Positions 11,885 to 22,424 are shown, counted from the first letter of the stretch. The stretch: 28,237 nt of DNA from Gammaproteobacteria bacterium (GCA_027858635.1 JAQICG010000192.1:1-28237), one strand, 5' to 3'. The notes: generated by a model from the sequence alone, not told the origin. Program-made: numbers and translations.

Positions 11885-12228
11885 TTAAAACACCTGTACC
11901 TTATCGGCATTGATAGTCTGTTCGGCAAGTTCTTTCATGGTGCTGCGCCGGGCGCCTTCGATGATCTCTTCATCAGTAACGCCGCGCGCGTCCATGCAGG
12001 TGCCGCAGAGCAGTACCGTACCGTTACGCAATACCGCCTTGAGCATCAGCTCGATGCTATAAAAACCTTTTGGCACTTTCTGGTCGTGTTTGCGCAGCTC
12101 ACGCCATCAGCTATTAAAAATACGGTGACGCTGGCATCGGCGGCAATCAGCGCCTTGGCCAGGCGCAGGCCGTTATAACTGCGCTCGTTACCATAGGGAG
12201 GTTCATTGATGATGATCAGGGTGTTCAT
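11885..12228 (-). pseudogene. DsrE/DsrF-like (YchN-type) protein with a -1 frameshift
   Basis: N-half IIINEPPYGNERSYNGLRLA..VFLIADGV and C-half PKGFYSIELML..LCGTCMDARG..ADKVQVF. Adding one base to the TTT run at 12089-12091 joins them into 114 aa. GGAG precedes ATG 12228. Confidence 0.85.
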
Positions 12229-12357
12229 AGTCATTCTCCGTCATGTCTGCTTCAGTCAGTTTTTATCAAGTTGCTGCAGTATCTATAACATGTATCTCAT
12301 TGAGTAAACACGCCGTATAAACGGGGGAGTCACCGGGAAATATATACAGGTTTCATT

Positions 12358-13581
12358 TCAACGGGTTTCAAAAGCAGGGCTGGACTGGAGTCGATGCCGT
12401 TTCAGCCACCACAGGATGACCACCAGGGTGATCAAAATCGGCAGGAGCGCGCTCAGATTGAGCAGCGACCAGCCGAGGTAATGCACCAGCACCCCGGATA
12501 GCAGTGAGCTGGTCACTACCGTGCCGTAAACGATCAGATCATTCACCCCCTGGGTGATGCCGCGCTCGGTGGGGGTGTGGGTGAGCGTCAGCAGGTCGCT
12601 GCCGCCAACAAAAAGAAAATTCCAGCCGACGCCGAGTAGTACCAGTGCCAGCCAGTAATGAGACAGGGTCTGTCCGACAGCCGCAGTCAGGACCGAAATC
12701 ACCAGTAACACGCAACCCGTAAGCAGGATTTTGCCCAGTCCAAAACGGGTGATCAGGAAACCGGTGAAGAAGGAGGGAGCGAACATGCCCAGTACATGCC
12801 ACTGCATGATGAAGGAAATATCGGACATGGCGAAACCGGCGGCGCGCATGCCCAGCGGGGTGGCGCTCATCAGCATCACCATGACTGCATAGGCGACGGC
12901 ACCGGCCAGCACGGCAACCCTGAAGTCGAGCTGAGCGGTGATGGCACGCAGGGGGCGGTGCGGCAGATCCGCGCCCGGTTCGCGGCTGGGTGGTACACGT
13001 AACATGCTCAGCAACAGCATCGCCAGCACAGACAATGCGGTGATGACGGCGTAGGGGCCTGCGTTCGGTACTGCAGGTAGCAGGTCCAGCGTGGCGCTGG
13101 CGTTCCACGGGCCGAGAAAGGCGGCAATCACACCGCCGGCCAGCACCAGCGAGATGGCGCGGCTGTGCCACTGCGGGCGCACCACATCGACCGCCGCAAA
13201 ACGGTAATACATAGCAAAGCCCTGGTAGATTCCTAGTAGCAGACTGGCGAAGCAGAACAGCCAGAAGGAGGCGTTGGCGATGGCCAGCACACTGAGCGCG
13301 CCGCCGAGAAAGCCACCAAGGCTGGTGCCCAGCAGGAACCCGGTTCGCCGCCCGAACCGCTGCATGAACAGGGAAGCCGGCAGCGTTGACATCAGCGTGC
13401 CTAGCATCATCGCTGAAATGGGCAACGTGGCCAGCATTGAATCGGGCGCCAGTTCGCGTCCCACCAACCCGCTCAGGGTCATCACCGTGATCGCGGTGAT
13501 ATTGAACAGTGACTGGGCGATGGCCAGCAGCGCGATGTTGAAGCGTTCGCGCGGGAAGGCATTTGCTGGTGTTATGGGCAT
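12358..13581 (-). CDS. MFS transporter
   Basis: About 12 hydrophobic segments, MQRFGRRTGF loop, YRFAAVD, QWHVLGMFAPSFFTG and GWNFLFVGGS. Confidence 0.92.
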   Translation of the reverse strand: MPITPANAFPRERFNIALLAIAQSLFNITAITVMTLSGLVGRELAPDSMLATLPISAMMLGTLMSTLPASLFMQRFGRRTGFLLGTSLGGFLGGALSVLAIANASFWLFCFASLLLGIYQGFAMYYRFAAVDVVRPQWHSRAISLVLAGGVIAAFLGPWNASATLDLLPAVPNAGPYAVITALSVLAMLLLSMLRVPPSREPGADLPHRPLRAITAQLDFRVAVLAGAVAYAVMVMLMSATPLGMRAAGFAMSDISFIMQWHVLGMFAPSFFTGFLITRFGLGKILLTGCVLLVISVLTAAVGQTLSHYWLALVLLGVGWNFLFVGGSDLLTLTHTPTERGITQGVNDLIVYGTVVTSSLLSGVLVHYLGWSLLNLSALLPILITLVVILWWLKRHRLQSSPAFETR

Positions 13582-13665
13582 TCTGGTTTCCGTCTGGAGT
13601 TGGTAGCATCGGGCGCGCAGTTTTCTGTGCGCCGCGCCGGCGTTATTATTGCACAGGTTTTGTGC

Positions 13666-14469
13666 TTATTTATCGGCATCGCCCGTGTTCTGTTGCCTAT
13701 TGCTGATGAAACCCTTGATGCGCAGCAGATCCCCGTCCAGCGCTGGCTGACCGTGCCACCACTGGTAATCCGGGGACTGGTGGAAGGCGCCGAGATAGAC
13801 GTTGCGCAGGTGTTTTTTCGTCTGTTGCATGAGGCCGGTGAGCTCGGCATCGGCCGGTGCCTGATGTTCATTGGCATACTCACCAACCAGCTGCCGGGCC
13901 TCGCGAACTTTCATCCGGGCAATCTCGATCATGCTCACGGCATTGTCATTGAGCCGGTTAATGTAACTGATGCCATGGCAATCAAGGCAGCTGCCGGCAA
14001 TGCGATCCATGTCCGTCTCTGCCGGCTTGAGCGGTTTGGCTTTTGCGGTTAAATGATTGCCATAGTGAAAATGGCAATAGGCGCAGCCCGGCGCCCGGTA
14101 GTTGGCTTCGCGTAGCGGCTGGTTCCAGTCATAATTTTTCTGCTCCAGCTGCATGATAATGCCGTGCTTGGAGGTGGCGTAACTGTGCACCACCGGCGAT
14201 GTGCCGCCGCCGTGGCAGTCAACGCAGCTATCATTGCGCCGACTGCGAGCCGCCGCCCCCTGGTGATCACGGCCATGACAGCTGGTGCAGAGCGCCACCG
14301 GTTTGGTGGAGGCGTGAACGCTCTGTTGCCAGTCGGCCACCAGTGTGGGCTCGGTGGACTGGTGACAGGTGATGCACTCTTCGTGGCTGAAATCCCCCTG
14401 TACGGCCTCCCGGCTTTCTGCGTAGGAGAATGGCAGCAGACAGGTCAGCAGAAATAATGGGCGCAGCAT
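13666..14469 (-). CDS. Periplasmic pentaheme cytochrome c, truncated HAO-family paralog
   Basis: Signal peptide; five CxxCH (CITCH, CTSCH, CVDCH, CAYCH, CLDCH); SKHG, DW..PL...NY.AP.CAYCH and GAFHQSPDYQWWHG. TGATG overlap with the upstream gene. Confidence 0.88.
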   Translation of the reverse strand: MLRPLFLLTCLLPFSYAESREAVQGDFSHEECITCHQSTEPTLVADWQQSVHASTKPVALCTSCHGRDHQGAAARSRRNDSCVDCHGGGTSPVVHSYATSKHGIIMQLEQKNYDWNQPLREANYRAPGCAYCHFHYGNHLTAKAKPLKPAETDMDRIAGSCLDCHGISYINRLNDNAVSMIEIARMKVREARQLVGEYANEHQAPADAELTGLMQQTKKHLRNVYLGAFHQSPDYQWWHGQPALDGDLLRIKGFISNRQQNTGDADK

Positions 14470-15806
14470 CAGTTATGCTCCCGGTTGTATTCGGTGTATT
14501 CGCCTTTCAACCAGATGTTTTCCGGATCGGTTTTATCCGCCTCGGTTTTGCCGGCGGCGCGGATGTTTGTGACTTTCCGCCTGATATCCTCAAGCTGTTG
14601 ATCCATGGCCTTATGGCCCTTGTTGATGAACGAAACATCGCCATGCGCCGAGCCTTTATAAGCACCGAGGTTACTGAAATACCACATATCAAAATAGTCA
14701 CGCTCGATCGGCGAGACGTTATAAAAAGCCGAAGCCTGACCTTCAAAGAAGCCGATGCGCTCGCGTTGCAGCAAGGTATGCGCGTCATCACCGGGATAGG
14801 GCGGGCGCTGATGAATCGAGGGCGACAGCAGATCATCGGAGCGCAGGCCTTTTAACAGGGCTTCGGCTTCATCCAGTTTGCTCCACGCCTGCTTGCGTTC
14901 CCGGTCCATGGCGCTCAGTTGTTGTGCCGACCACTCGGCTTCGTGGCAATCGCTGCACAGTTCGATCCACTGCTGGCGTTTGACGACATTGCCGGAACTG
15001 AGCGGGTTGATCTGCTTGATGCCGAATTTCCAGATGGACTTGTCCGCCACCTGATGCTTGCCTTCGCTCATGTGACAGTAGGCGCAGGTGGGTGCAGGAT
15101 AATTGCCTTTCTGCAGGGGTTTGGACCAGTCCCAGTCCTGGCCCTCATTCAGATAAAGCTGGCCGTGGGCGGAGTTGAAATAGGTCTCATCGTCCGGGTG
15201 CGGCGGGCCGCTGTGGCAGGTGATGCAGGCTTCCGGCCGGCGCGCTTCGGCGGCGCTGAATTTGTGCCGGCTGTGGCAGGAGTCGCATTTGGTCGCCACC
15301 GAATGGCATTGCAAACAGGCGGTAACTTCGGCCTTGGGTTTATCGACAAAATGTTTGGCGTCCAGCGCCCGCTCCATGGCCAGGGCGTGGCTGGGAAAGC
15401 CGTAGCGTTTTTCATCCATGAACTGATCGTGCTGGGTGGCATGGCAGGTGGCGCAAATATCCGGCGTCGGCAGGTGCAGGTTCTGATGGTCACTGCCGTG
15501 GCAGGCGCTGCAATAGACTTTGGGTTCGGCCTGCGCATGGCGTGAAGCCTGCCAGTCCTTGACGATGCCGGGGCTCATATCACGATGGCAGGCGACACAC
15601 TCTTCGCCCTCGAATTCACCCACTACCGTATCCACCGACTGGTAAAAATCATCCGGATTCCAGTAGCCGAAAACCGCTTCCGGCAACCAGTCGCGTGAAT
15701 ACAGGCCGGCGCCGTCGCCGCTCTTGCTCCAGTCTACATACCAGAAACCGGCGGGAATCAGGATGCTGAGGATGAGCAGGGTGATCCAGATATAGGCCAG
15801 ACGCAT
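14469..15806 (-). CDS. Octaheme cytochrome c of the hydroxylamine oxidoreductase (HAO) structural family, N-terminally membrane anchored
   Basis: Eight CxxCH (CVACH, CSACH, CATCH, CLQCH, CDSCH, CITCH, CAYCH, CSDCH) and the family signature CDSCHSRHKFSAAEARRPEACITCH..Y..S.HG. Hydrophobic N-terminus. Confidence 0.9.
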   Translation of the reverse strand: MRLAYIWITLLILSILIPAGFWYVDWSKSGDGAGLYSRDWLPEAVFGYWNPDDFYQSVDTVVGEFEGEECVACHRDMSPGIVKDWQASRHAQAEPKVYCSACHGSDHQNLHLPTPDICATCHATQHDQFMDEKRYGFPSHALAMERALDAKHFVDKPKAEVTACLQCHSVATKCDSCHSRHKFSAAEARRPEACITCHSGPPHPDDETYFNSAHGQLYLNEGQDWDWSKPLQKGNYPAPTCAYCHMSEGKHQVADKSIWKFGIKQINPLSSGNVVKRQQWIELCSDCHEAEWSAQQLSAMDRERKQAWSKLDEAEALLKGLRSDDLLSPSIHQRPPYPGDDAHTLLQRERIGFFEGQASAFYNVSPIERDYFDMWYFSNLGAYKGSAHGDVSFINKGHKAMDQQLEDIRRKVTNIRAAGKTEADKTDPENIWLKGEYTEYNREHN

Positions 15807-15808
15807 GG

Positions 15809-16555
15809 TTATTTCAATCCTGTGTGGTGTTTTTTATTGTGGCCGATGCGCCAGCGTAGCAGGCCGATGAATACCAGTAGTAGAAAGGGCCCCAGCGCCA
15901 GCGCTATCGACTTAAACCAGCTGCTGTGCACAGTCGGCGCGGGCGCGAGCCGGGGTTCGGCTAATGCGGTGCCGGCCGCATGTCCGGTTTGCAGATAAAG
16001 CTGGATCTGCATCAGGCTGTCCGCCGAAGGCGCGTCGTAACGCATGATCTGCATGTTGCGCTGCATGCGTTTGATAACCTCTGACCATTCGCTGACGCTG
16101 TGCTGAGCCGGGTCCGGCAGGGCATGGCAGGCGCTGCAATGTTGCGTAAAGGTACTCGCGCCCAGTCCCTCGGGTGTGGTGCTCAGGGGGTGCAGGCTGT
16201 GGCGATTTAGATAATCGACCAGCTGCCGGTATTCGGCTGGCGTCGGCATCTTGACGTTGCCCAGCAGGCCGCCAAAGCGGTTGGCCACCGCCATCAGGGT
16301 GTTCATTCGCTCCAGCACCTCTGGCCACTCTTCAAGGGTATGCCGACCCGGCCCCGGCAGTTCATGGCACTGCGTGCAGTAATTCTGTAATGCCAGCGCA
16401 CCGGCACTTTCCGCCTCCGGCAGTTGCGCAAGCGGCATCCCCGGCGGCATCACTTCCGGGTAGAGCGCGCACATATCCAGCCCGCCAAAGCTGTGGCTGG
16501 CCTGCGCTGCCGTGGCGGTCATGCTCAGCAACATAATTAGCGACAGCTTTCGCAT
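15809..16555 (-). CDS. Diheme cytochrome c with signal peptide and C-terminal membrane anchor
   Basis: Two repeats of CxxCHxLPxPxxHxxxEWxxVxxRM (CTQCH, CSACH), an AQA signal-peptidase site and a C-terminal TM (IALALGPFLLLVFIGLL) followed by a basic tail. Confidence 0.88.
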   Translation of the reverse strand: MRKLSLIMLLSMTATAAQASHSFGGLDMCALYPEVMPPGMPLAQLPEAESAGALALQNYCTQCHELPGPGRHTLEEWPEVLERMNTLMAVANRFGGLLGNVKMPTPAEYRQLVDYLNRHSLHPLSTTPEGLGASTFTQHCSACHALPDPAQHSVSEWSEVIKRMQRNMQIMRYDAPSADSLMQIQLYLQTGHAAGTALAEPRLAPAPTVHSSWFKSIALALGPFLLLVFIGLLRWRIGHNKKHHTGLK

Positions 16556-18981
16556 GCTGCGGCACTGCTGGTCGCATCGGCCACGGTGACCGGGCCGGTG
16601 AGAGCGTGAGGGGATTTGAATGCAGTTTTGAATTTAGGGGCCCATTGTCGCCAGGGCTGAAAATCTTTGAGTATGGCCTCGGCGGCGCGGCGACCGGCTG
16701 AAATAGCCGTCACCACCAGTTCCGGCCCCAGCGTGTTATCGCCGCCGGCATAGATCTGCGGATGGCGGGTGCGGCCATGAGTATCGACATGGATAGCGCC
16801 TACAGAATCGGTGGTGACGCCCAGTCGCCCCATCCAGTCATCGGCCTGTGTGACCTGGCCCACCGCCAGAATGAGCTGGTCGCAGGTGATACAGGGGCGA
16901 TCATCGCCGGTGGTTTTGAACTGCACCGCCACCACCTGCTGCTTGCCGATGACATGAATCGGGCTGTGTTCGAACTGAAAAACAACACCTTCATCGCATG
17001 CCGTCTGCTGCTCTTTCGGCGAGGCGCGCATCGCCTGTGCAGCGCCGCGATAGGCCAGCGTGACTTTGGCTGCACCCTGACGGATAGCGGCGCGAGCGCA
17101 GTCCATGGCGCTGTCGCCACCGCCGATCACCAGCACTTCTTTATTGGTGAGGGCGCTGCTGTCCATCTGTTGATTGACTGCGGCCAGATAAGTAATGGCA
17201 TCGGTGACGCCGGCCAGATTTTGATTCGGCAGATTCAGATCGCGGGAGGTCTGCGCCCCCGTCGCCAGAAACAGCGCGTCGTGATCGAGCAGTAGCTGTT
17301 GCAGTCGGGGCTCATCGACATCCGTACCCAGATGAAAAACCACGCCCTGTTGCAGCAACTGCTGCTGACGGCGCTCCAGCAGGTTCCGATCCAGCTTGAA
17401 GGTCGGCACGCCCGAGGCCAGCAGGCCGCCGATGCGATCCAGTCGATCATAAACATTCACTCTGAGGCCGATGCGGCTGAGTTCATCGGCGCAGGTCAGC
17501 CCCGCCGGGCCGGCACCGATGATGGCCACGCTGCGGTGTTGATGCTGTTTTGAAGGCGTGTCCTGCTGATGTGGTCGCCAGCCACGCTTGAAGGCCTCGG
17601 TGACCAGAAAGCGCTCAGCCGCGCCGATGGTGACCGCGCCGCCAGGTTCTTTGGCCTTGGTGCAGGCGCCTTCGCATAAGCGGTGTTGCGGGCACAGCGT
17701 GCCACAGATTTCCGGGAAGTTGCTGGTGCTGTGGGCCAGCTCTGCCGCCTGTTCGATGTTGCCTTTGGCCAGTGCTTCCAGCCACTCCGGGATACGGTTT
17801 TGCAGCGGGCAGGCATTGATGCAGCTGGGCATGCCGCAGTCCAGACAGCGGCTGGCCTGAGCCTGGATCTCGGCCAGCGTTGGCGACAGCGTAATCTCTG
17901 CCCAATCCTGAACGCGCTGTTCAGCCGTGCGAACTGGCGCTTCCTCGCGCATCACCGGCGCCACCGTTTTGCGTTTCATCAGGTGGCTGGCATTCTGCAC
18001 CAGCGACTTATTGAACAGGTTGCGCACATCGCGAATCTCCAGCGCATCAGTCGGGCAGGAGACCACACAACGGGCGCAGCCCATGCAATCTTCCAGCCCG
18101 GTGATCTGGCCACTGGCCCTGCCCTGAGTCCAAACCGGGATGCCCATGTCGCATACCTGTTCGCAGCGCTGGCAGTCGATGCATTTATCCTGATCCATTT
18201 TGACGCGAAAAAACCCGGCATGGTTGAGCAGGCCGAAAGTGGCGCCGTAGGGGCAGAGATAGCGGCAGTAGAAGCGGTTGCCGACCAGCGGCGCAATATA
18301 GAAGCTGCCGAAGTAGGTGAGCGCCACCATGGCATAAAAGCCGCCGACGAAACTCACCGTCCACGAGCTGGGCGGGAACTGAGTGACAATCATGACGCCG
18401 ACATAATAGATGAAGAAAAACCATTTGCTGTGGCGCAGCGCCCGGCCCCAGCTGGAGCGCACGGTGCGGTCACGAAAGGCGAAACCGACAGTTTCGCGGA
18501 TGCCGACACAGGGGCAGTTGAAGCCGCAGATGATGCGCCGTCCGAACAGAAACACCAGACCGAGAATCAGGAAAAAGCTCACCGTACCCGGCACATGCAG
18601 GGAAGGGAATACCGGCTGCGACCAGAGGAAACCCACATAGGGTTCGTAGAAGGGGTAGAGCCAGGGCACCAGCCACCAGAACGCGGTGACCATGCCGACC
18701 AGAATGATCAGGCGTTTGCGGGTATAGCTGTTTTTCTCGGCAACGATGCGCCAGATGCCAAAGCCCAGAATAATGCCGTATTCAGTATAGCGATTCAGCC
18801 AGATGGGGTTCTCAAACCACATCAGCCAGGTTTCGTTGAGCCAGCCGACGAACGCCAGCGTGAAGGCGGCCATGCTGAGCAACTGGATAGCGATGCTGTA
18901 ACGTGCGGGCATCAGATCCTGGGTGTTCGCCGAGTTCGATCGCGGCATGTGGTAAACAGGATAGTCGTTGCTCATAGCCAT
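16537..18981 (-). CDS. Fusion of a NapH/MauN-like membrane polyferredoxin and a GltD-like FAD/NAD(P)H Fe-S oxidoreductase
   Basis: About 6 TM segments, two CxxxCP motifs (CGFNCP, CRYLCP), two ferredoxin-type 4Fe-4S motifs (CIDCQRCEQVC, CMGCARCVVSCP), then CLDCGMPSCINACP, ICGTLCP...CEGAC, GAGPAG, GGGDSAMD and YAGGD. Start placed at ATG 18981 (GGAG 8 nt upstream); the ORF track starts at 18987. Confidence 0.92.
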   Translation of the reverse strand: MAMSNDYPVYHMPRSNSANTQDLMPARYSIAIQLLSMAAFTLAFVGWLNETWLMWFENPIWLNRYTEYGIILGFGIWRIVAEKNSYTRKRLIILVGMVTAFWWLVPWLYPFYEPYVGFLWSQPVFPSLHVPGTVSFFLILGLVFLFGRRIICGFNCPCVGIRETVGFAFRDRTVRSSWGRALRHSKWFFFIYYVGVMIVTQFPPSSWTVSFVGGFYAMVALTYFGSFYIAPLVGNRFYCRYLCPYGATFGLLNHAGFFRVKMDQDKCIDCQRCEQVCDMGIPVWTQGRASGQITGLEDCMGCARCVVSCPTDALEIRDVRNLFNKSLVQNASHLMKRKTVAPVMREEAPVRTAEQRVQDWAEITLSPTLAEIQAQASRCLDCGMPSCINACPLQNRIPEWLEALAKGNIEQAAELAHSTSNFPEICGTLCPQHRLCEGACTKAKEPGGAVTIGAAERFLVTEAFKRGWRPHQQDTPSKQHQHRSVAIIGAGPAGLTCADELSRIGLRVNVYDRLDRIGGLLASGVPTFKLDRNLLERRQQQLLQQGVVFHLGTDVDEPRLQQLLLDHDALFLATGAQTSRDLNLPNQNLAGVTDAITYLAAVNQQMDSSALTNKEVLVIGGGDSAMDCARAAIRQGAAKVTLAYRGAAQAMRASPKEQQTACDEGVVFQFEHSPIHVIGKQQVVAVQFKTTGDDRPCITCDQLILAVGQVTQADDWMGRLGVTTDSVGAIHVDTHGRTRHPQIYAGGDNTLGPELVVTAISAGRRAAEAILKDFQPWRQWAPKFKTAFKSPHALTGPVTVADATSSAAACESCR

Positions 18982-18992
18982 AATCAATGCTC

Positions 18993-19346
18993 CTAGAACA
19001 CCATCACCTGATCGCTGTCTTTGACCCAGGCCGCCAGTGCTTTCATCGAGCCGCGCTCGATACCGGGAATCATGGTGGCTTCATCAATGGCGCAATCGTT
19101 CAGGGACATGCCGCAGGCGCGCACCTCGAGGCCGCACTCCATCAGCTCGGCCAGCAGCTCTTCCAGATTCACCGCGCCTGCGGGTGGCTGCTGGTTAATG
19201 CGGCCGACCTCAACACCATTATCCAGCAGGTGTACGCGCACCACCATGTCTTCAGTCAGGGCGGCGCCGGCAAAACGCAACGCGTGCCAGGCCTTGTTGT
19301 CGGCTTGATAGGGGGCGTTTTGAATAACGACAGTGACGGTACTCAT
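18993..19346 (-). CDS. DsrE/DsrF-family protein (putative sulfur carrier)
   Basis: VVIQNAPY..ALRFA..VHLLDNGV, the conserved Cys in VRACG, and SMKALAAWVKDSDQVMVF. TAATG overlap with tauE. Confidence 0.88.
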   Translation of the reverse strand: MSTVTVVIQNAPYQADNKAWHALRFAGAALTEDMVVRVHLLDNGVEVGRINQQPPAGAVNLEELLAELMECGLEVRACGMSLNDCAIDEATMIPGIERGSMKALAAWVKDSDQVMVF

Positions 19347-20131
19347 TATGAAAACTCCTGGATTAGTTGCTGGATTAATATGTAACTGGCGACCAGTAAC
19401 AGGAAGATGCCAAAGCCTTTTTTCAGCAGGGCAGCGGGCAGGCGATGCGCCAGATGGCTGCCGGCCAGACTGCCGACGATAGCGATCAGGGTAAAGGTAG
19501 CCATGAGCGAATAGTCGATCGCCACCGCGCCGGCATAGCCAGCAAAACCGGCCACCGATTTCAGGGTGACGATGCCCAGCGATGTGCCTACCGCCTGTTT
19601 CATGGGCAGGCCGGATAGCAGGACCAGTGCCGGCACAATCAGAAAGCCGCCGCCAACACCCACCAGCCCGGTGAGTACGCCGATGGCAATGCCGTGAACA
19701 GCAATTTCACGGTAATTCAGGTCATCGCAAAAACCGTCTGCGCATTCGGTACTGGCGGCGCCGACCGATTTGTGCAGAGCGACCGGTTTGAGCATTCTCC
19801 AGGCGGCGAGGTACATTACCAGCGCGAACAGGGTGAGCTGGATAAAGACCGGGGTGATTACGCCCAGACGCGCACCGGCATAGGTGCCGAGTACGCCAAA
19901 CAGACCAAAAACAAGGGTGACCTTCATGTTGACGTTGCCGCGATGCCAGTGCTGTAGCGCAGTGATGCCGGCGGTAATGGCGACAATGCCCAGGCTCATG
20001 GCGATGGCCGATTTGGGCTCGACATCCAGCAGGTAAAGCAGTGCCGGCACGGTAACGATGGAACCACCACTACCGAAAATGCCGAGTAACACACCGGTCA
20101 TAATACCGGCCACAATGACAGCGAAAGACAT
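19346..20131 (-). CDS. TauE/SafE (TSUP) sulfite-exporter-family transporter
   Basis: Duplicated G-rich motifs [16 protein letters not shown] and [21 protein letters not shown], and about 8 TM segments. Confidence 0.92.
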
Positions 20132-20143
20132 GTTAAATACTCA

Positions 20144-21121
20144 CTATTGATTAATGGGATAACCCTGTTTATTCCAGTCGACCATGCCCATCTTCACCAC
20201 GTGCACATCGGCAAAGCCGTGCTGCGCCAGCAGCTGCGCCGCCTGCGAGGACATTTTGTCGGTGCGGCAGATGGTGAGCACCGGCTGTTCCAGATAACCG
20301 CCCAGTTCATCCAGGCGCTGCGGCAGTTCGTTGAGCGGAATGTGGGTGGCCTCGGCAATGTGGCCGAGATCGCCGTGGTAACCCTCTTCAGGGCGCACAT
20401 CCAGCAGCAGCAGTTTTTCGCCGGTATCCAGCCGCTGCTTGAGCTGCTCGGTGCTGACCATGGGTTTGCGGCGCAGCATGGCGATCAGCCGGGGCAAAAA
20501 GCCCACCACAGCCAGCAGGGCGATGGCCAGCAGGATCTTCTGGATCATGCCTTCACCACCGGCGATGGCCTCCTTACCGGCGTAACCCAGATAGGTGTAG
20601 GCGATGGCACCGGGCAGCATGCAGACATAGGTGGCGATGCTGTACTGGGCGAAACTGATGCGGGTCAGGCCCAGCGCGTAGTTCAGCAGGTTGAACGGGA
20701 ACAGCGGCACCAGCCGGGTGAAAGCGACAAAGCGCCAGCCCTCGTTTTCCACACCGGAGACCAGCTGTTTCATTTTGCCGCCGGTCTGAGCATCCATTTT
20801 TTTGGCCACCCAGTCGGCGGCCAGATAGCGCGCCACCAGAAATGAGAGCATGGCGCCCACCGTGGCGGCGGTTAGATTATAAAAAGTACCCCAGTAAGGT
20901 CCGAACAGGGCGCCGCCGAGCAGGGTAAGTAGTGAGCCGGGCAGGAAAAAAACCGCACCCAGCGCGTAGATCACCATGAACAAAATCGGCGCGGCACCAC
21001 CGGCGCTCTGAATCCACTGTTCCAGTGCGTCGGCATTGATCTGATCCCGGTACATCACGACAATGGCAATGCCAGTGAGCAGTATCAGTGCCAGTAGCAG
21101 TTTGGTAGTCGTATTTTTCAT
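20144..21121 (-). CDS. VTT/TVP38 (DedA-like) membrane domain fused to a C-terminal rhodanese
   Basis: FFLPGSLLTLLGGALFG, RLVPLFPFNLLNYALG and LPG..AY; then LLDVR..E..GHI..A.HIP and the active-site loop ICRTDKMS. TAATG overlap at 21121. Confidence 0.92.
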   Translation of the reverse strand: MKNTTTKLLLALILLTGIAIVVMYRDQINADALEQWIQSAGGAAPILFMVIYALGAVFFLPGSLLTLLGGALFGPYWGTFYNLTAATVGAMLSFLVARYLAADWVAKKMDAQTGGKMKQLVSGVENEGWRFVAFTRLVPLFPFNLLNYALGLTRISFAQYSIATYVCMLPGAIAYTYLGYAGKEAIAGGEGMIQKILLAIALLAVVGFLPRLIAMLRRKPMVSTEQLKQRLDTGEKLLLLDVRPEEGYHGDLGHIAEATHIPLNELPQRLDELGGYLEQPVLTICRTDKMSSQAAQLLAQHGFADVHVVKMGMVDWNKQGYPINQ

Positions 21122-22002
21122 TATTTGTTGTCCTCAGAATCGTCCTCGGAATCTTCTGTCCACTGACGGCGGTTAATGGTGTAACCGCTCACCTTGCCGG
21201 TAAAAGGCATGACCAGCAGGCCGGTGATCCAGGAGGACTGTCTGGTTGTGCGGAAATTTCTGATGCCGATGGTCATGCCCAGATGGCCCGCGCGCGGCTG
21301 GTCGCGGTAGGTGCCGAGCAGACGATCCCACCAGCTCAGGTTGAAACCGAAATTGCTGTTGGTCTCATCATCTTCAATGGAGTGGTGCACGCGGTGCATG
21401 TCCGGAGTGACGACGAACCAGCGCAGGAACCTGTCCAGCGCCGGTGGCAGTCCGACATTGCCGTGGTTGAACATGGACATGGCGTTGAGCACTACTTCAA
21501 AAATGACGACCGCCACTACGGGTGCACCGATGACTACAATGGTGGCGAACTTGATCACCATCGACAGCAGAATCTCAATTGGATGAAAGCGCGCGCCGGT
21601 GGTCAGGTCAAAATCCAGATCGGCATGGTGCACCCGGTGCAGTCGCCACAGCGCAGGTACAGCGTGCACCATGACATGCTGCAAATAGATGATCAGATCC
21701 ATTATCACCACCGAGAGGATGATGGTCACGGCCAGCGGCAACTGGAAATAGTTAAACAGCCCCCAGCCCTGTTGGCTGACGAAGGCGGCCATGCCCACTG
21801 CGGCGGCAGGAAAAATCAGACGCAATAGAATAGTGTTAAAAAATACCAGTCCCAGATTATTGCCCCAACGCAGAGCCTTGGAAACCGTTAGTGCACGTTT
21901 GGGGGCGAGCACTTCCCAGAGTGCCATGATCGCCAGCACGCCCAGAAAAAAACTCAGACGGATGGTTTGTTCGTGTTGGGCAATTGAGTTAATCAGGTTC
22001 AT
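21121..22002 (-). CDS. Sterol desaturase / fatty acid hydroxylase superfamily membrane di-iron protein
   Basis: His boxes HVMVH, LHRVHH, FNHGN and MHRVHHS, plus NFGFNLSWWDRLLGTY and several TM segments. Confidence 0.92.
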   Translation of the reverse strand: MNLINSIAQHEQTIRLSFFLGVLAIMALWEVLAPKRALTVSKALRWGNNLGLVFFNTILLRLIFPAAAVGMAAFVSQQGWGLFNYFQLPLAVTIILSVVIMDLIIYLQHVMVHAVPALWRLHRVHHADLDFDLTTGARFHPIEILLSMVIKFATIVVIGAPVVAVVIFEVVLNAMSMFNHGNVGLPPALDRFLRWFVVTPDMHRVHHSIEDDETNSNFGFNLSWWDRLLGTYRDQPRAGHLGMTIGIRNFRTTRQSSWITGLLVMPFTGKVSGYTINRRQWTEDSEDDSEDNK

Positions 22003-22066
22003 GGAAGTCTTCTCCGGCGGTACTTGTGAAAGCCGACAATCAGGTTATGATAATATCTGCATAAAG

Positions 22067-22088
22067 TATTCAATTAATCTCTTGAATA
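22067..22088. promoter_or_regulatory. Putative ArsR/SmtB-type operator in the divergent promoter
   Basis: Perfect 7-8-7 inverted repeat TATTCAA-TTAATCTC-TTGAATA in the 110-bp AT-rich gap between the operon start and the arsR remnant. Confidence 0.6.
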
Positions 22089-22112
22089 GTAGAATAGAGG
22101 AAGTAACATAAT

Positions 22113-22424
22113 ATGTCAAGCGGAAATTTCGAACACGCTCTTTTTTCCCAGTTTGCCCGGGTGGGTAAGACAATGAGTAGTGTTAATCATCTGGAGCTGC
22201 TGGAGTTTCTGGCCCAGGGTGAATGCAGTGTCGACGAACTGGCGAAAGTCGCCGGCAGAAAACAGAGACTTAAAGTCTATTACAGCCTGGGCAACGATGA
22301 TGTCATCACCCTGTTCCATGCCCTGCACAAAGTCGCCAGAGTAAAGCAAAAAAGCCTGAAAGCGCGAGGACTGGAAGAGGGTTTCACGGAATGGAAAATA
22401 GCCGGATTGCTGGTGGAGCGTTAG
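22113..22424 (+). pseudogene. Internally deleted ArsR-HTH/rhodanese fusion regulator
   Basis: LFSQFARVGK..LELLEFLAQGECSVDELAKVAG jumps to RKQRLKVYYSL, so the recognition helix is missing. LHKVA jumps to ..LKARGLEEGFTEWKIAGL, which is only the last rhodanese segment with no catalytic Cys loop. Confidence 0.8.

Follow-up and report, generated by a model that had tools for sequence, protein, structure and literature searches.

In Kuenenia stuttgartiensis, the gene set Kuste4569-4574 combines an octahaem cytochrome c similar to hydroxylamine oxidoreductase (HAO) with an NAD(P) oxidoreductase on a quinol-oxidizing core, and this complex has been proposed to bifurcate the electrons of quinol to NAD(P)+ and nitrite (Hauser 2025, PMC12954380). 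HAOr, a nitrite-reducing HAO devoid of the Tyr that is cross-linked to haem 4, works with a dihaem partner, and the Tyr-less HAOs characterized so far act as reductases (Ferousi 2021, PMC8042395). The Tyr in question provides a link to the neighbouring subunit and corresponds to Tyr467 in NeHAO and to Tyr449 in 6T5E (bioRxiv 10.64898/2026.07.28.741245). Here, we describe a locus whose parts all belong to known superfamilies and which has a functional analogue in anammox bacteria. It is located on a stretch of 28,237 nucleotides from a Gammaproteobacteria bacterium (GCA_027858635.1, JAQICG010000192.1:1-28237), in the following called the window, and contains the genes for a fusion of a NapH-like with a GltD-like part (NapH-GltD), for an HAO-family octahaem cytochrome c and for a pentahaem paralog of the latter. 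This redox module is real, widespread and without a described function. Our preferred reading, to which we assign a probability of roughly 0.4, is that of a conserved, horizontally mobile module of sulfur-oxidizing Proteobacteria that would serve as an NAD(P)H-fed reductase of extracytoplasmic sulfur or chalcogen species.

The three-gene core

Loci were gathered from the regions of relatives, from a sample of 400 genomes of the class and from 80 named genome contigs, and the window proteins were mapped onto them. Many of these loci stem from metagenome-assembled genomes (MAGs), and frameshifts, including the one in a DsrE gene of the window, may be assembly errors. Among the orthologous loci with at least 3.8 kb upstream of the octahaem gene, the NapH-GltD gene was found upstream of it in 63 of 63, and among those with at least 1 kb downstream, the pentahaem gene followed in 68 of 68. 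The original prediction, a reading of the window by a model, had proposed to check exactly this co-occurrence of the fusion with the octahaem/pentahaem pair, and it was borne out. In the 400-genome sample, 15 genomes contained the octahaem gene, 15 the fusion gene and 14 both, adjacent to each other, with the two exceptions located at contig ends. The module is present in about 3.5% of this sample. Given its recurrence in at least 13 families of the class, chance falls far short of explaining the arrangement. All these observations show that the NapH-GltD fusion, the octahaem and the pentahaem constitute the core, held together by a near-obligate three-gene linkage.

The module proteins are 60-77% identical across families and orders, Burkholderiales (Thiobacillus) included, and the G+C content of the operon (0.57-0.63 at window positions 12000-22000) contrasts with that of the flanks (0.45-0.52). 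Together, this contrast and the cross-order identity suggest a lateral spread of the module. Named carriers include Thiohalobacter, Thiogranum, Thiohalophilus, Thioalkalispiraceae, Thiotrichaceae, Sulfuricaulis/Sulfurifustaceae, Sedimenticola, the endosymbionts of Escarpia and Lamellibrachia, Ca. Thiodiazotropha, Thiobacillus and Sulfuricellaceae; the window's organism itself is present in saline and cold-spring metagenomes. In one closed 3.4-Mb genome (G068), the octahaem gene (G068:C1:2093512-2095140; L027 13513-15139) has decayed, with several TGA and TAA stops and shifted frames, and the NapH-GltD gene upstream of it is intact.

The octahaem cytochrome belongs to the HAO family: its eight CxxCH motifs occur in HAO order, and its sequence matches over residues 31-439 to the PDB entries 6T5E, 4N4J, 6H5L and 6HIF (anammox HAO-like/HOX/HAOr/HDH) have E-values of 1e-59 to 1e-64. 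The column of the cross-linking Tyr is occupied by Phe393 in the window and by F, G, A or R, never by Y, in 78 orthologues; with this Tyr absent, the protein does not belong to the oxidative (P460) HAOs. In the distal loop after haem 6, the sequence is GPPH in 75 of the 78 orthologues, with Pro for the catalytic Asp of the Asp-His pair, whereas 14 out of 17 other HAO-family representatives, reductive ones included, keep GxDH. Membership in the hydrazine dehydrogenases is not supported either (NF052343, 199.7 bits against a cut-off of 900). The octahaem is presumed to be the catalytic subunit and, with neither the cross-linking Tyr nor the catalytic Asp present, probably acts as a reductase. 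Since the Tyr-less HAOs that were studied are reductases, this role requires the fewest assumptions. A hydrophobic N-terminal helix, conserved in 14 orthologues, suggests that the protein is anchored in the membrane.

When the library was clustered at 50% identity, the octahaem clade was reduced to one full-length representative (56% identity), and the next full-length relatives were 38-42% identical or lower. The clade is therefore a sharply delimited orthologous group. Its nearest out-of-clade representative (P0244, 38% identity) also lacks the Asp, and in the anammox-type genome that encodes it, Rieske and cytochrome b genes are its neighbours. Separately, a second and more distant HAO-like paralog of about 495-500 amino acids (35-48% identity in fragments) was observed at G002:C103:1418-2152, G021:C81:9775-10470 and G013:C574:3045-3740; it was not found in the window's genome.

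Aligned to the octahaem, the pentahaem keeps haem motifs 1, 2, 6, 7 and 8, residues 111-184 are deleted and motifs 3-5 are missing, catalytic haem 4 among them. It carries a cleavable signal peptide, and five CxxCH motifs are found in 61 of 63 orthologues. This soluble protein is presumed to be an electron-transfer or structural partner. The slot between the fusion and octahaem genes is used for a small cytochrome of variable type: out of 73 loci, 21 encode a dihaem form, 17 a monohaem form and 35 none. The small cytochrome is therefore not part of the core. The dihaem version of the window has a signal peptide and a C-terminal membrane anchor (helix 215-233, then a basic tail). A sequence search of it against solved structures, the HAOr partner Kustc0457 included, yielded no match, and a role as obligate Kustc0457-like partner was rejected for this reason and for its frequent absence. 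The 15-haem HAO-family module of the original prediction conflates a catalytic octahaem, a non-catalytic pentahaem paralog and an unrelated, dispensable small cytochrome.

The fusion protein comprises 816 amino acids, with an alternative ATG start six bases downstream (18981). Its N-terminal part is NapH-like: about six helices are predicted, and two CX3CP motifs are combined with a 2x[4Fe-4S] ferredoxin domain. No variation was seen among 14 homologues in the NapH/MauN motifs (C154-x3-C158-P159 and C241-x3-C245-P246) or in the cluster motifs (C269-C279 and C301-C311), and the periplasmic loops (residues 52-69 and 113-134) are almost invariant as well. The corresponding profile scores nevertheless stay below their cut-offs, with 73.9 bits against 213.05 for TIGR02163 (residues 139-318) and 66.6 against 234 for the NapH equivalog. 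In the GltD-like part, whose Fe-S, FAD and NAD(P) elements are complete, PF14691 (Fer4_20, 108.8 bits) and PF07992 (Pyr_redox_2, 121.6 bits) both exceed their cut-offs, the gltD family TIGR01318 reaches 399 bits against a cut-off of 483 (residues 346-775), and residues 345-782 match GltD, NfnB and DPD-like PDB chains by sequence. By the positive-inside rule, the Fe-S, flavin and NAD(P) motifs of the fusion are all cytoplasmic. Seemingly un-fused NapH and GltD genes in one genome (G225) were rejected as such, being one open reading frame (ORF) of 890 amino acids with an insertion.

Operon layout and gene neighbourhood

Genes were assigned from an ORF listing, followed by Pfam (above gathering scores) and NCBIfam profiles. 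The ten co-oriented genes claimed by the original prediction, with the content it listed, were confirmed on the minus strand between 11885 and 22002; its account had left the tenth gene unnamed, which encodes an FA_hydroxylase-family di-iron protein. The features, in the direction of the operon and followed by those upstream of it, are:

21121-22002, minus strand: FA_hydroxylase-family di-iron membrane protein, first operon gene (PF04116, 98 bits against a cut-off of 31)
20144-21121, minus strand: VTT/DedA membrane protein with C-terminal rhodanese (PF09335, 97.5 bits; PF00581, 61.9 bits)
19346-20131, minus strand: TauE/SafE-family anion permease, accessory gene (PF01925, 166 bits)
18993-19346, minus strand: DsrE-family small sulfur-carrier protein (PF02635, 61.5 bits against a cut-off of 22.7)
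16537-18987, minus strand: NapH-like and GltD-like fusion (NapH and gltD profiles, Fer4_20, Pyr_redox_2)
15809-16555, minus strand: dihaem c-type cytochrome, variable accessory gene (two CxxCH motifs)
14469-15806, minus strand: HAO-family octahaem cytochrome c (eight CxxCH motifs; PF13447, 143 bits against a cut-off of 21.9)
13666-14469, minus strand: pentahaem paralog of the octahaem (five CxxCH motifs)
12358-13581, minus strand: major facilitator superfamily (MFS) transporter, lineage-specific accessory gene (PF07690, 79 bits)
11885-12234, minus strand: second DsrE-family gene, frameshifted (comparison with the congeners G005 and G002)
22113-22424, plus strand: remnant of a divergent ArsR-rhodanese regulator, 103 amino acids (comparison with the 219-residue orthologue of G002)
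22003-22119, minus strand: divergent control region (sigma-70-like promoter match)

The upstream eight genes are coupled by overlaps or gaps of at most 12 bp, as had been claimed. The ORFs overlap by 1 nt at 21121, 19346 and 14469 and by 19 bp between the fusion and dihaem genes (16537-16555), and the other junctions are gaps of 12 bp (20132-20143), 5 bp (18988-18992) and 2 bp (15807-15808). The MFS gene, whose position 3′ of the pentahaem gene is limited to the two closest congeners, and the second DsrE gene are set off by 84 and 123 bp, respectively. A putative operon promoter, TTGACA-17-TATTCT at 22119-22091, has 10/12 matches and the correct position 5′ of the first gene; the total of such sites found in the region does not exceed the shuffled expectation, which makes the support for this site weak. 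Out of three metatranscriptome runs from the source saline-spring study, two contained 100%-identical contigs, of 197 and 283 nt, which map to 20248-20602, solely inside the VTT-rhodanese gene, and may represent DNA carry-over. Two short contigs in one gene were considered too little, and co-transcription evidence from this source was rejected.

The scanned flanks contain housekeeping genes (HrpA, Band 7, S24 peptidase, kinase, MltF-like and similar); labels such as SelO and PhoX-like come from reading the translations, without tool support. As the original prediction had stated for amo, cycAB, nrf and nap, N-cycle catalytic genes are absent among the annotated window ORFs, scanned flanks included. 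Likewise, no nir, nor, nap, nrf, hcp or amt genes occur among the annotated recurrent gene clusters of 80 loci, and no Rieske or cytochrome b gene was found in the scanned window ORFs or among the recurrent neighbours in these 80 loci.

Upstream neighbours were counted in the 43 loci whose sequence extends 4.5 kb or more beyond the 5′ end of the fusion gene. They include an ArsR(-rhodanese) gene in divergent orientation (33 loci), the FA hydroxylase (32), the VTT-rhodanese (30), DsrE (27) and TauE (7), and cysteine desulfurase or metallo-beta-lactamase genes are inserted in some loci. Rare linkage of the redox genes to sulfur-carrier genes elsewhere, which had been named as a reason to give up the original prediction, was not observed, as at least one rhodanese, DsrE, TauE or ArsR-rhodanese gene was present in 43 of 43 loci. 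The FA_hydroxylase gene is located immediately 5′ of VTT-rhodanese each time it occurs, and its His boxes are conserved in 33 orthologues. VTT-rhodanese carries the six-residue active-site loop C-R-T-D-K-M of a rhodanese, and 28 orthologues share CRTD(K/R)xS with the catalytic Cys; positively charged residues are located after the last helix, and the rhodanese domain is predicted to be cytoplasmic. In the first DsrE, which belongs to the DsrE/TusD family, the Cys of the ACG motif is conserved in 31 orthologues. Two DsrE genes are indeed present, as originally described, although the second one is frameshifted in the window: in comparison with G005 and G002, where it is intact, it has a 1-nt deletion at about 12092 and is split into frames of 62 and 63 amino acids. 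It could be a pseudogene or the product of a MAG assembly error.

The opposite ArsR-rhodanese regulator of the original prediction holds for the relatives, in which the orthologues are divergent, intact and full-length (about 220-230 amino acids, Pfam HTH_5 and Rhodanese), but not for the window, whose copy shows two in-frame internal losses relative to the 219-residue orthologue. It lacks the recognition helix of the helix-turn-helix (HTH) domain and the rhodanese core including the catalytic Cys, and it does not qualify as an ArsR/SmtB protein (no Pfam match; NCBIfam ArsR/SmtB, 21 bits against a cut-off of 55). The orthologous regulators have a conserved two-Cys CRGxxC rhodanese loop and an HTH domain without conserved Cys. 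Given that the window repressor is a remnant, the operon may be derepressed or constitutive in this lineage. In the closest congener, G005 (L009 3625-3921), the regulator is likewise reduced to about 103 amino acids, and the congener G002 keeps 219.

For downstream neighbours, loci with at least 1.5 kb downstream were used (59 loci). Genes for ArsM-like (15), UbiE-type methyltransferase (15), DUF2064 (8), ArsS (7) or GT2 (3) proteins were found in 28 of these, often directly after the pentahaem gene, and the arsenosugar radical-SAM enzyme ArsS was matched with 462 bits against a cut-off of 300. A MerA/GR-like flavoprotein is encoded in 12 loci and a further multihaem cytochrome in 7. In Thiohalobacter-like loci, a multihaem cytochrome of about 415-430 amino acids (L055:10499-11794 and seven other loci) directly follows the pentahaem and is itself followed by the MerA/GR-like flavoprotein (L055:11791-13203). 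Thiohalobacter sp. IOR34 has arsS and arsM 3′ of the module and co-oriented with it, and in 4 of 14 module-bearing genomes ArsS is encoded within 6 kb of the module, which is far above chance for a single-copy gene. However, ArsS is common in the class (185 out of 400 genomes, 46%), and the arsS gene of the window's genome is located away from the module, split over two contig ends (G000:C272:3-533 and G000:C15:10457-10885). The link to arsenic methylation is therefore real but facultative. A link at the level of whole genomes was set aside, being weaker than the neighbourhood implies.

Electron flow and substrate

According to the preferred reading, electrons of cytoplasmic NAD(P)H would enter the FAD and Fe-S chain of the fusion protein and pass to its NapH-type membrane part. 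From there, they would reach the periplasmic haems, most plausibly via a quinone, either bound or from the pool, in the manner of the NapGH-type quinol dehydrogenases. The periplasm-facing octahaem would then act as a reductase, with an extracytoplasmic sulfur or chalcogen species (zero-valent sulfur, polysulfide, sulfite or an Se/As analogue) as a more likely substrate than a free nitrogen oxide. The reduced product would be captured and passed inward by a sulfane-sulfur relay of VTT-rhodanese, DsrE and sometimes TauE or cysteine desulfurase. In relatives, control might be exerted by ArsR-rhodanese, whose two-Cys rhodanese loop suits the sensing of persulfides or metalloids. A sulfur or chalcogen substrate is judged more likely because of the sulfur-relay genes and the ArsR-rhodanese control, and the translational coupling of the sulfur-carrier genes to the module in the window, the conserved catalytic Cys of the rhodanese and DsrE proteins and the named hosts, which are sulfur oxidizers, also count in its favour.

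This reading is itself tentative, and a number of observations weigh against it. No cofactor motif was seen in the membrane or periplasmic loops of the fusion, and with all Fe-S and flavin motifs on the cytoplasmic side, the complete transmembrane chain of the original prediction is not sustained. The AlphaFold2 model of the fusion, built from a 14-sequence alignment and used for helix positions only, has a mean pLDDT of 55, and its membrane part, below 50, is unreliable. The substrate and the direction of electron flow are both inferred from sequence, and the biochemically characterized enzymes of the HAO family all have nitrogen compounds as substrates. For an autotroph, a periplasmic reduction at the expense of NAD(P)H would be costly, and the sulfur-relay genes could instead have a role in the maturation of cofactors or be neighbours under common regulation. 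Moreover, cytochrome-d1 (NirS/NirN/NirF) genes occur in 16 of 19 module-bearing genomes, and the complete genome with the decayed octahaem (G068) has none.

In a rival explanation, the octahaem is a nitrogen-oxide reductase of sulfur-oxidizing denitrifiers, a possibility that we regard as somewhat unlikely. It would reduce nitric oxide (NO), nitrite or hydroxylamine leaking from NirS-type denitrification, for detoxification or ammonium recovery, and would be fed by NAD(P)H or quinol via NapH-GltD, and the sulfur genes would be regulated along with it because sulfide stress and NO stress occur together. A precedent in the family is the reduction of nitrite, NO and hydroxylamine by HAOr (Kustc0458/7) and epsilon-Hao (Ferousi 2021, PMC8042395), all relatives have nitrite or NO reductase activity in vitro, and the best PDB sequence matches of the octahaem are anammox HAO-like proteins. 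The enrichment of d1 genes fits this explanation, as a background search of 300 genomes of the class (threshold 1e-100) found them in 48, and in 40 of 290 (about 14%) among those without the module, while NirK was absent in 19 of 19 module-bearing genomes; these counts are, however, not phylogenetically independent and are confounded by shared ancestry and niche. An octahaem gene full of stops in a genome without d1 (G068) agrees with it as well, whereas a 97% complete genome (G141) contains an intact module and no d1 gene. The absence of nitrogen-cycle genes from the annotated recurrent clusters also speaks against a nitrogen oxide as substrate, as does the replacement by Pro of an Asp that almost all other HAO-family representatives keep.

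As to the direction of electron flow, a quinol-bifurcating NAD(P)+ reductase is a serious rival, even though we consider it unlikely as a whole. Here, the NapH-type part would oxidize quinol, one electron would travel downhill via the haems to a high-potential acceptor, and the other would be driven uphill via Fe-S and FAD to NAD(P)+, providing NAD(P)H to autotrophs without reverse electron flow through complex I. NapH is known to work with NapG on the periplasmic side and with the Fe-S protein NapF on the cytoplasmic side, which counts for this explanation, and no electron transfer across the whole membrane would be required. The hosts are all chemolithoautotroph-type sulfur oxidizers in need of NAD(P)H, the Asp-less relative P0244 is encoded next to Rieske and cytochrome b genes, and the functional trio is the same as in Kuste4569-4574, for which the same mechanism was proposed (Hauser 2025, PMC12954380), although that anammox mechanism is itself unproven. 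On the other hand, the scanned window ORFs contain no Rieske, cytochrome b or other known bifurcating site, the uphill step would with ubiquinone need an acceptor above about +500 mV (our own estimate from standard potentials), and the sulfur-relay genes are left unexplained. More doubtful still is the extended form of this idea, in which the module would be a second, independently built counterpart of the anammox Rieske/cytochrome b-HAO complexes, i.e., a NapH-scaffolded bifurcating NAD(P)+ reductase driven by a periplasmic oxidant such as NirS-derived NO and serving CO2 fixation in sulfur-oxidizing denitrifiers and symbionts. Finally, the haem reductase might act on arsenate, pentavalent methylarsenicals or Se or Te oxyanions, with the adjacent ArsM/ArsS-type enzymes methylating the products or building arsenosugars and the ArsR-type regulator sensing the metalloid via its two-Cys rhodanese loop. 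The methyltransferase, ArsS, DUF2064 and GT2 genes downstream of the core, their same-strand arrangement in Thiohalobacter sp. IOR34, the proximity of ArsS in 4 of 14 genomes and the MerA/GR-like flavoprotein genes argue for such a metalloid function. We nevertheless consider it improbable, since ArsS is common in the class regardless of the module, the window and about half of the loci have no such gene beside it, the ArsR domain lacks the conserved Cys triad, and no haem enzyme is known to reduce arsenic species.

Novelty and comparison with known systems

Full-text literature searches, with most subscription journals outside their coverage, found no description of such an operon, in agreement with the original statement that no characterized operon of this composition was known. 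None of the papers found describes a fusion of NapH with GltD, a pentahaem partner derived from HAO, an active site with Pro for Asp or the setting among sulfur-relay genes. The anammox analogue, the ArsM/ArsS/methyltransferase neighbours and the NirS-type enrichment in the hosts had not been considered in the original prediction. Public annotations list the octahaem as 'hydroxylamine oxidoreductase/dehydrogenase' and the fusion as 'glutamate synthase small chain', and metagenomic surveys may thus count the octahaem as nitrification potential despite the absence of both hallmarks of oxidative HAOs. The hosts are ecologically important and include lucinid and tubeworm symbionts, Sedimenticola, Thiobacillus and Gammaproteobacteria of vents and springs. 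Once known, the reaction would define the role of a Tyr-less, Asp-less HAO and of an NAD(P)(H)-wired NapH-type polyferredoxin, and it would bear on how sulfur oxidizers mobilize or detoxify extracytoplasmic S, N and metalloid species, or on how they make NAD(P)H. Since at least one named host with a closed genome that is not a MAG, Thiohalobacter sp. IOR34, carries the module, the question may be experimentally tractable.

With the GltD-family flavoproteins (GltD, NfnB, SudA, DsrL and AegA/YgfK), the fusion shares the Fer4_20 and Pyr_redox_2 architecture, but it is membrane-tethered, scores below the gltD cut-off and has periplasmic cytochromes as presumed partners instead of glutamate synthase, ferredoxin or DsrAB. 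Similar to the quinol dehydrogenases NapGH, MauMN and NosGH, it has a polytopic membrane part in which two CX3CP motifs are followed by a C-terminal 2x[4Fe-4S] domain, and it would serve a periplasmic redox enzyme. It differs from these by six instead of four predicted helices, a score below the NapH cut-off, the lack of a NapG-like periplasmic ferredoxin and the fusion to GltD. The regulatory setting resembles the BigR/SqrR operons and YgaV-YgaP, in which the gene of an ArsR-family regulator is transcribed divergently from an operon that encodes a membrane rhodanese along with sulfur handlers similar to TauE or DsrE. In contrast to these, the module's regulator is fused to a rhodanese (CRGxxC), its HTH domain has no conserved Cys, the operon includes a multihaem module and the window copy is degraded.

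The octahaem has in common with HAOr (Kustc0458/Kustc0457) and epsilon-Hao an octahaem HAO fold without the Tyr cross-link and a distal loop in the GPxHPD frame. Unlike in those enzymes, the Asp is replaced by Pro, an N-terminal anchor is present, the dihaem cytochrome is unrelated to Kustc0457 and often absent, and the place of soluble cytochromes or NapC/NrfH-type proteins as electron donor is putatively taken by the NapH-GltD fusion. The closest functional analogue found is the anammox Rieske/cytochrome b complex Kuste4569-4574 (R/b-3). Both appear to combine a membrane module that interacts with quinol, an HAO-like octahaem on the positive side and a cytoplasmic Fe-S/FAD NAD(P) oxidoreductase, and Rieske and cytochrome b genes adjoin the gene of the nearest out-of-clade relative of the window octahaem, which is likewise without Asp. 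The window, however, contains no Rieske/cytochrome b and is not of the R/b type, as its membrane part is NapH-type and fused to the flavoprotein. The anammox-type octahaem is only 38% identical, and the HAO-derived pentahaem, the sulfur-relay operon and the sulfur-oxidizing proteobacterial hosts set the module apart from its anammox counterpart.

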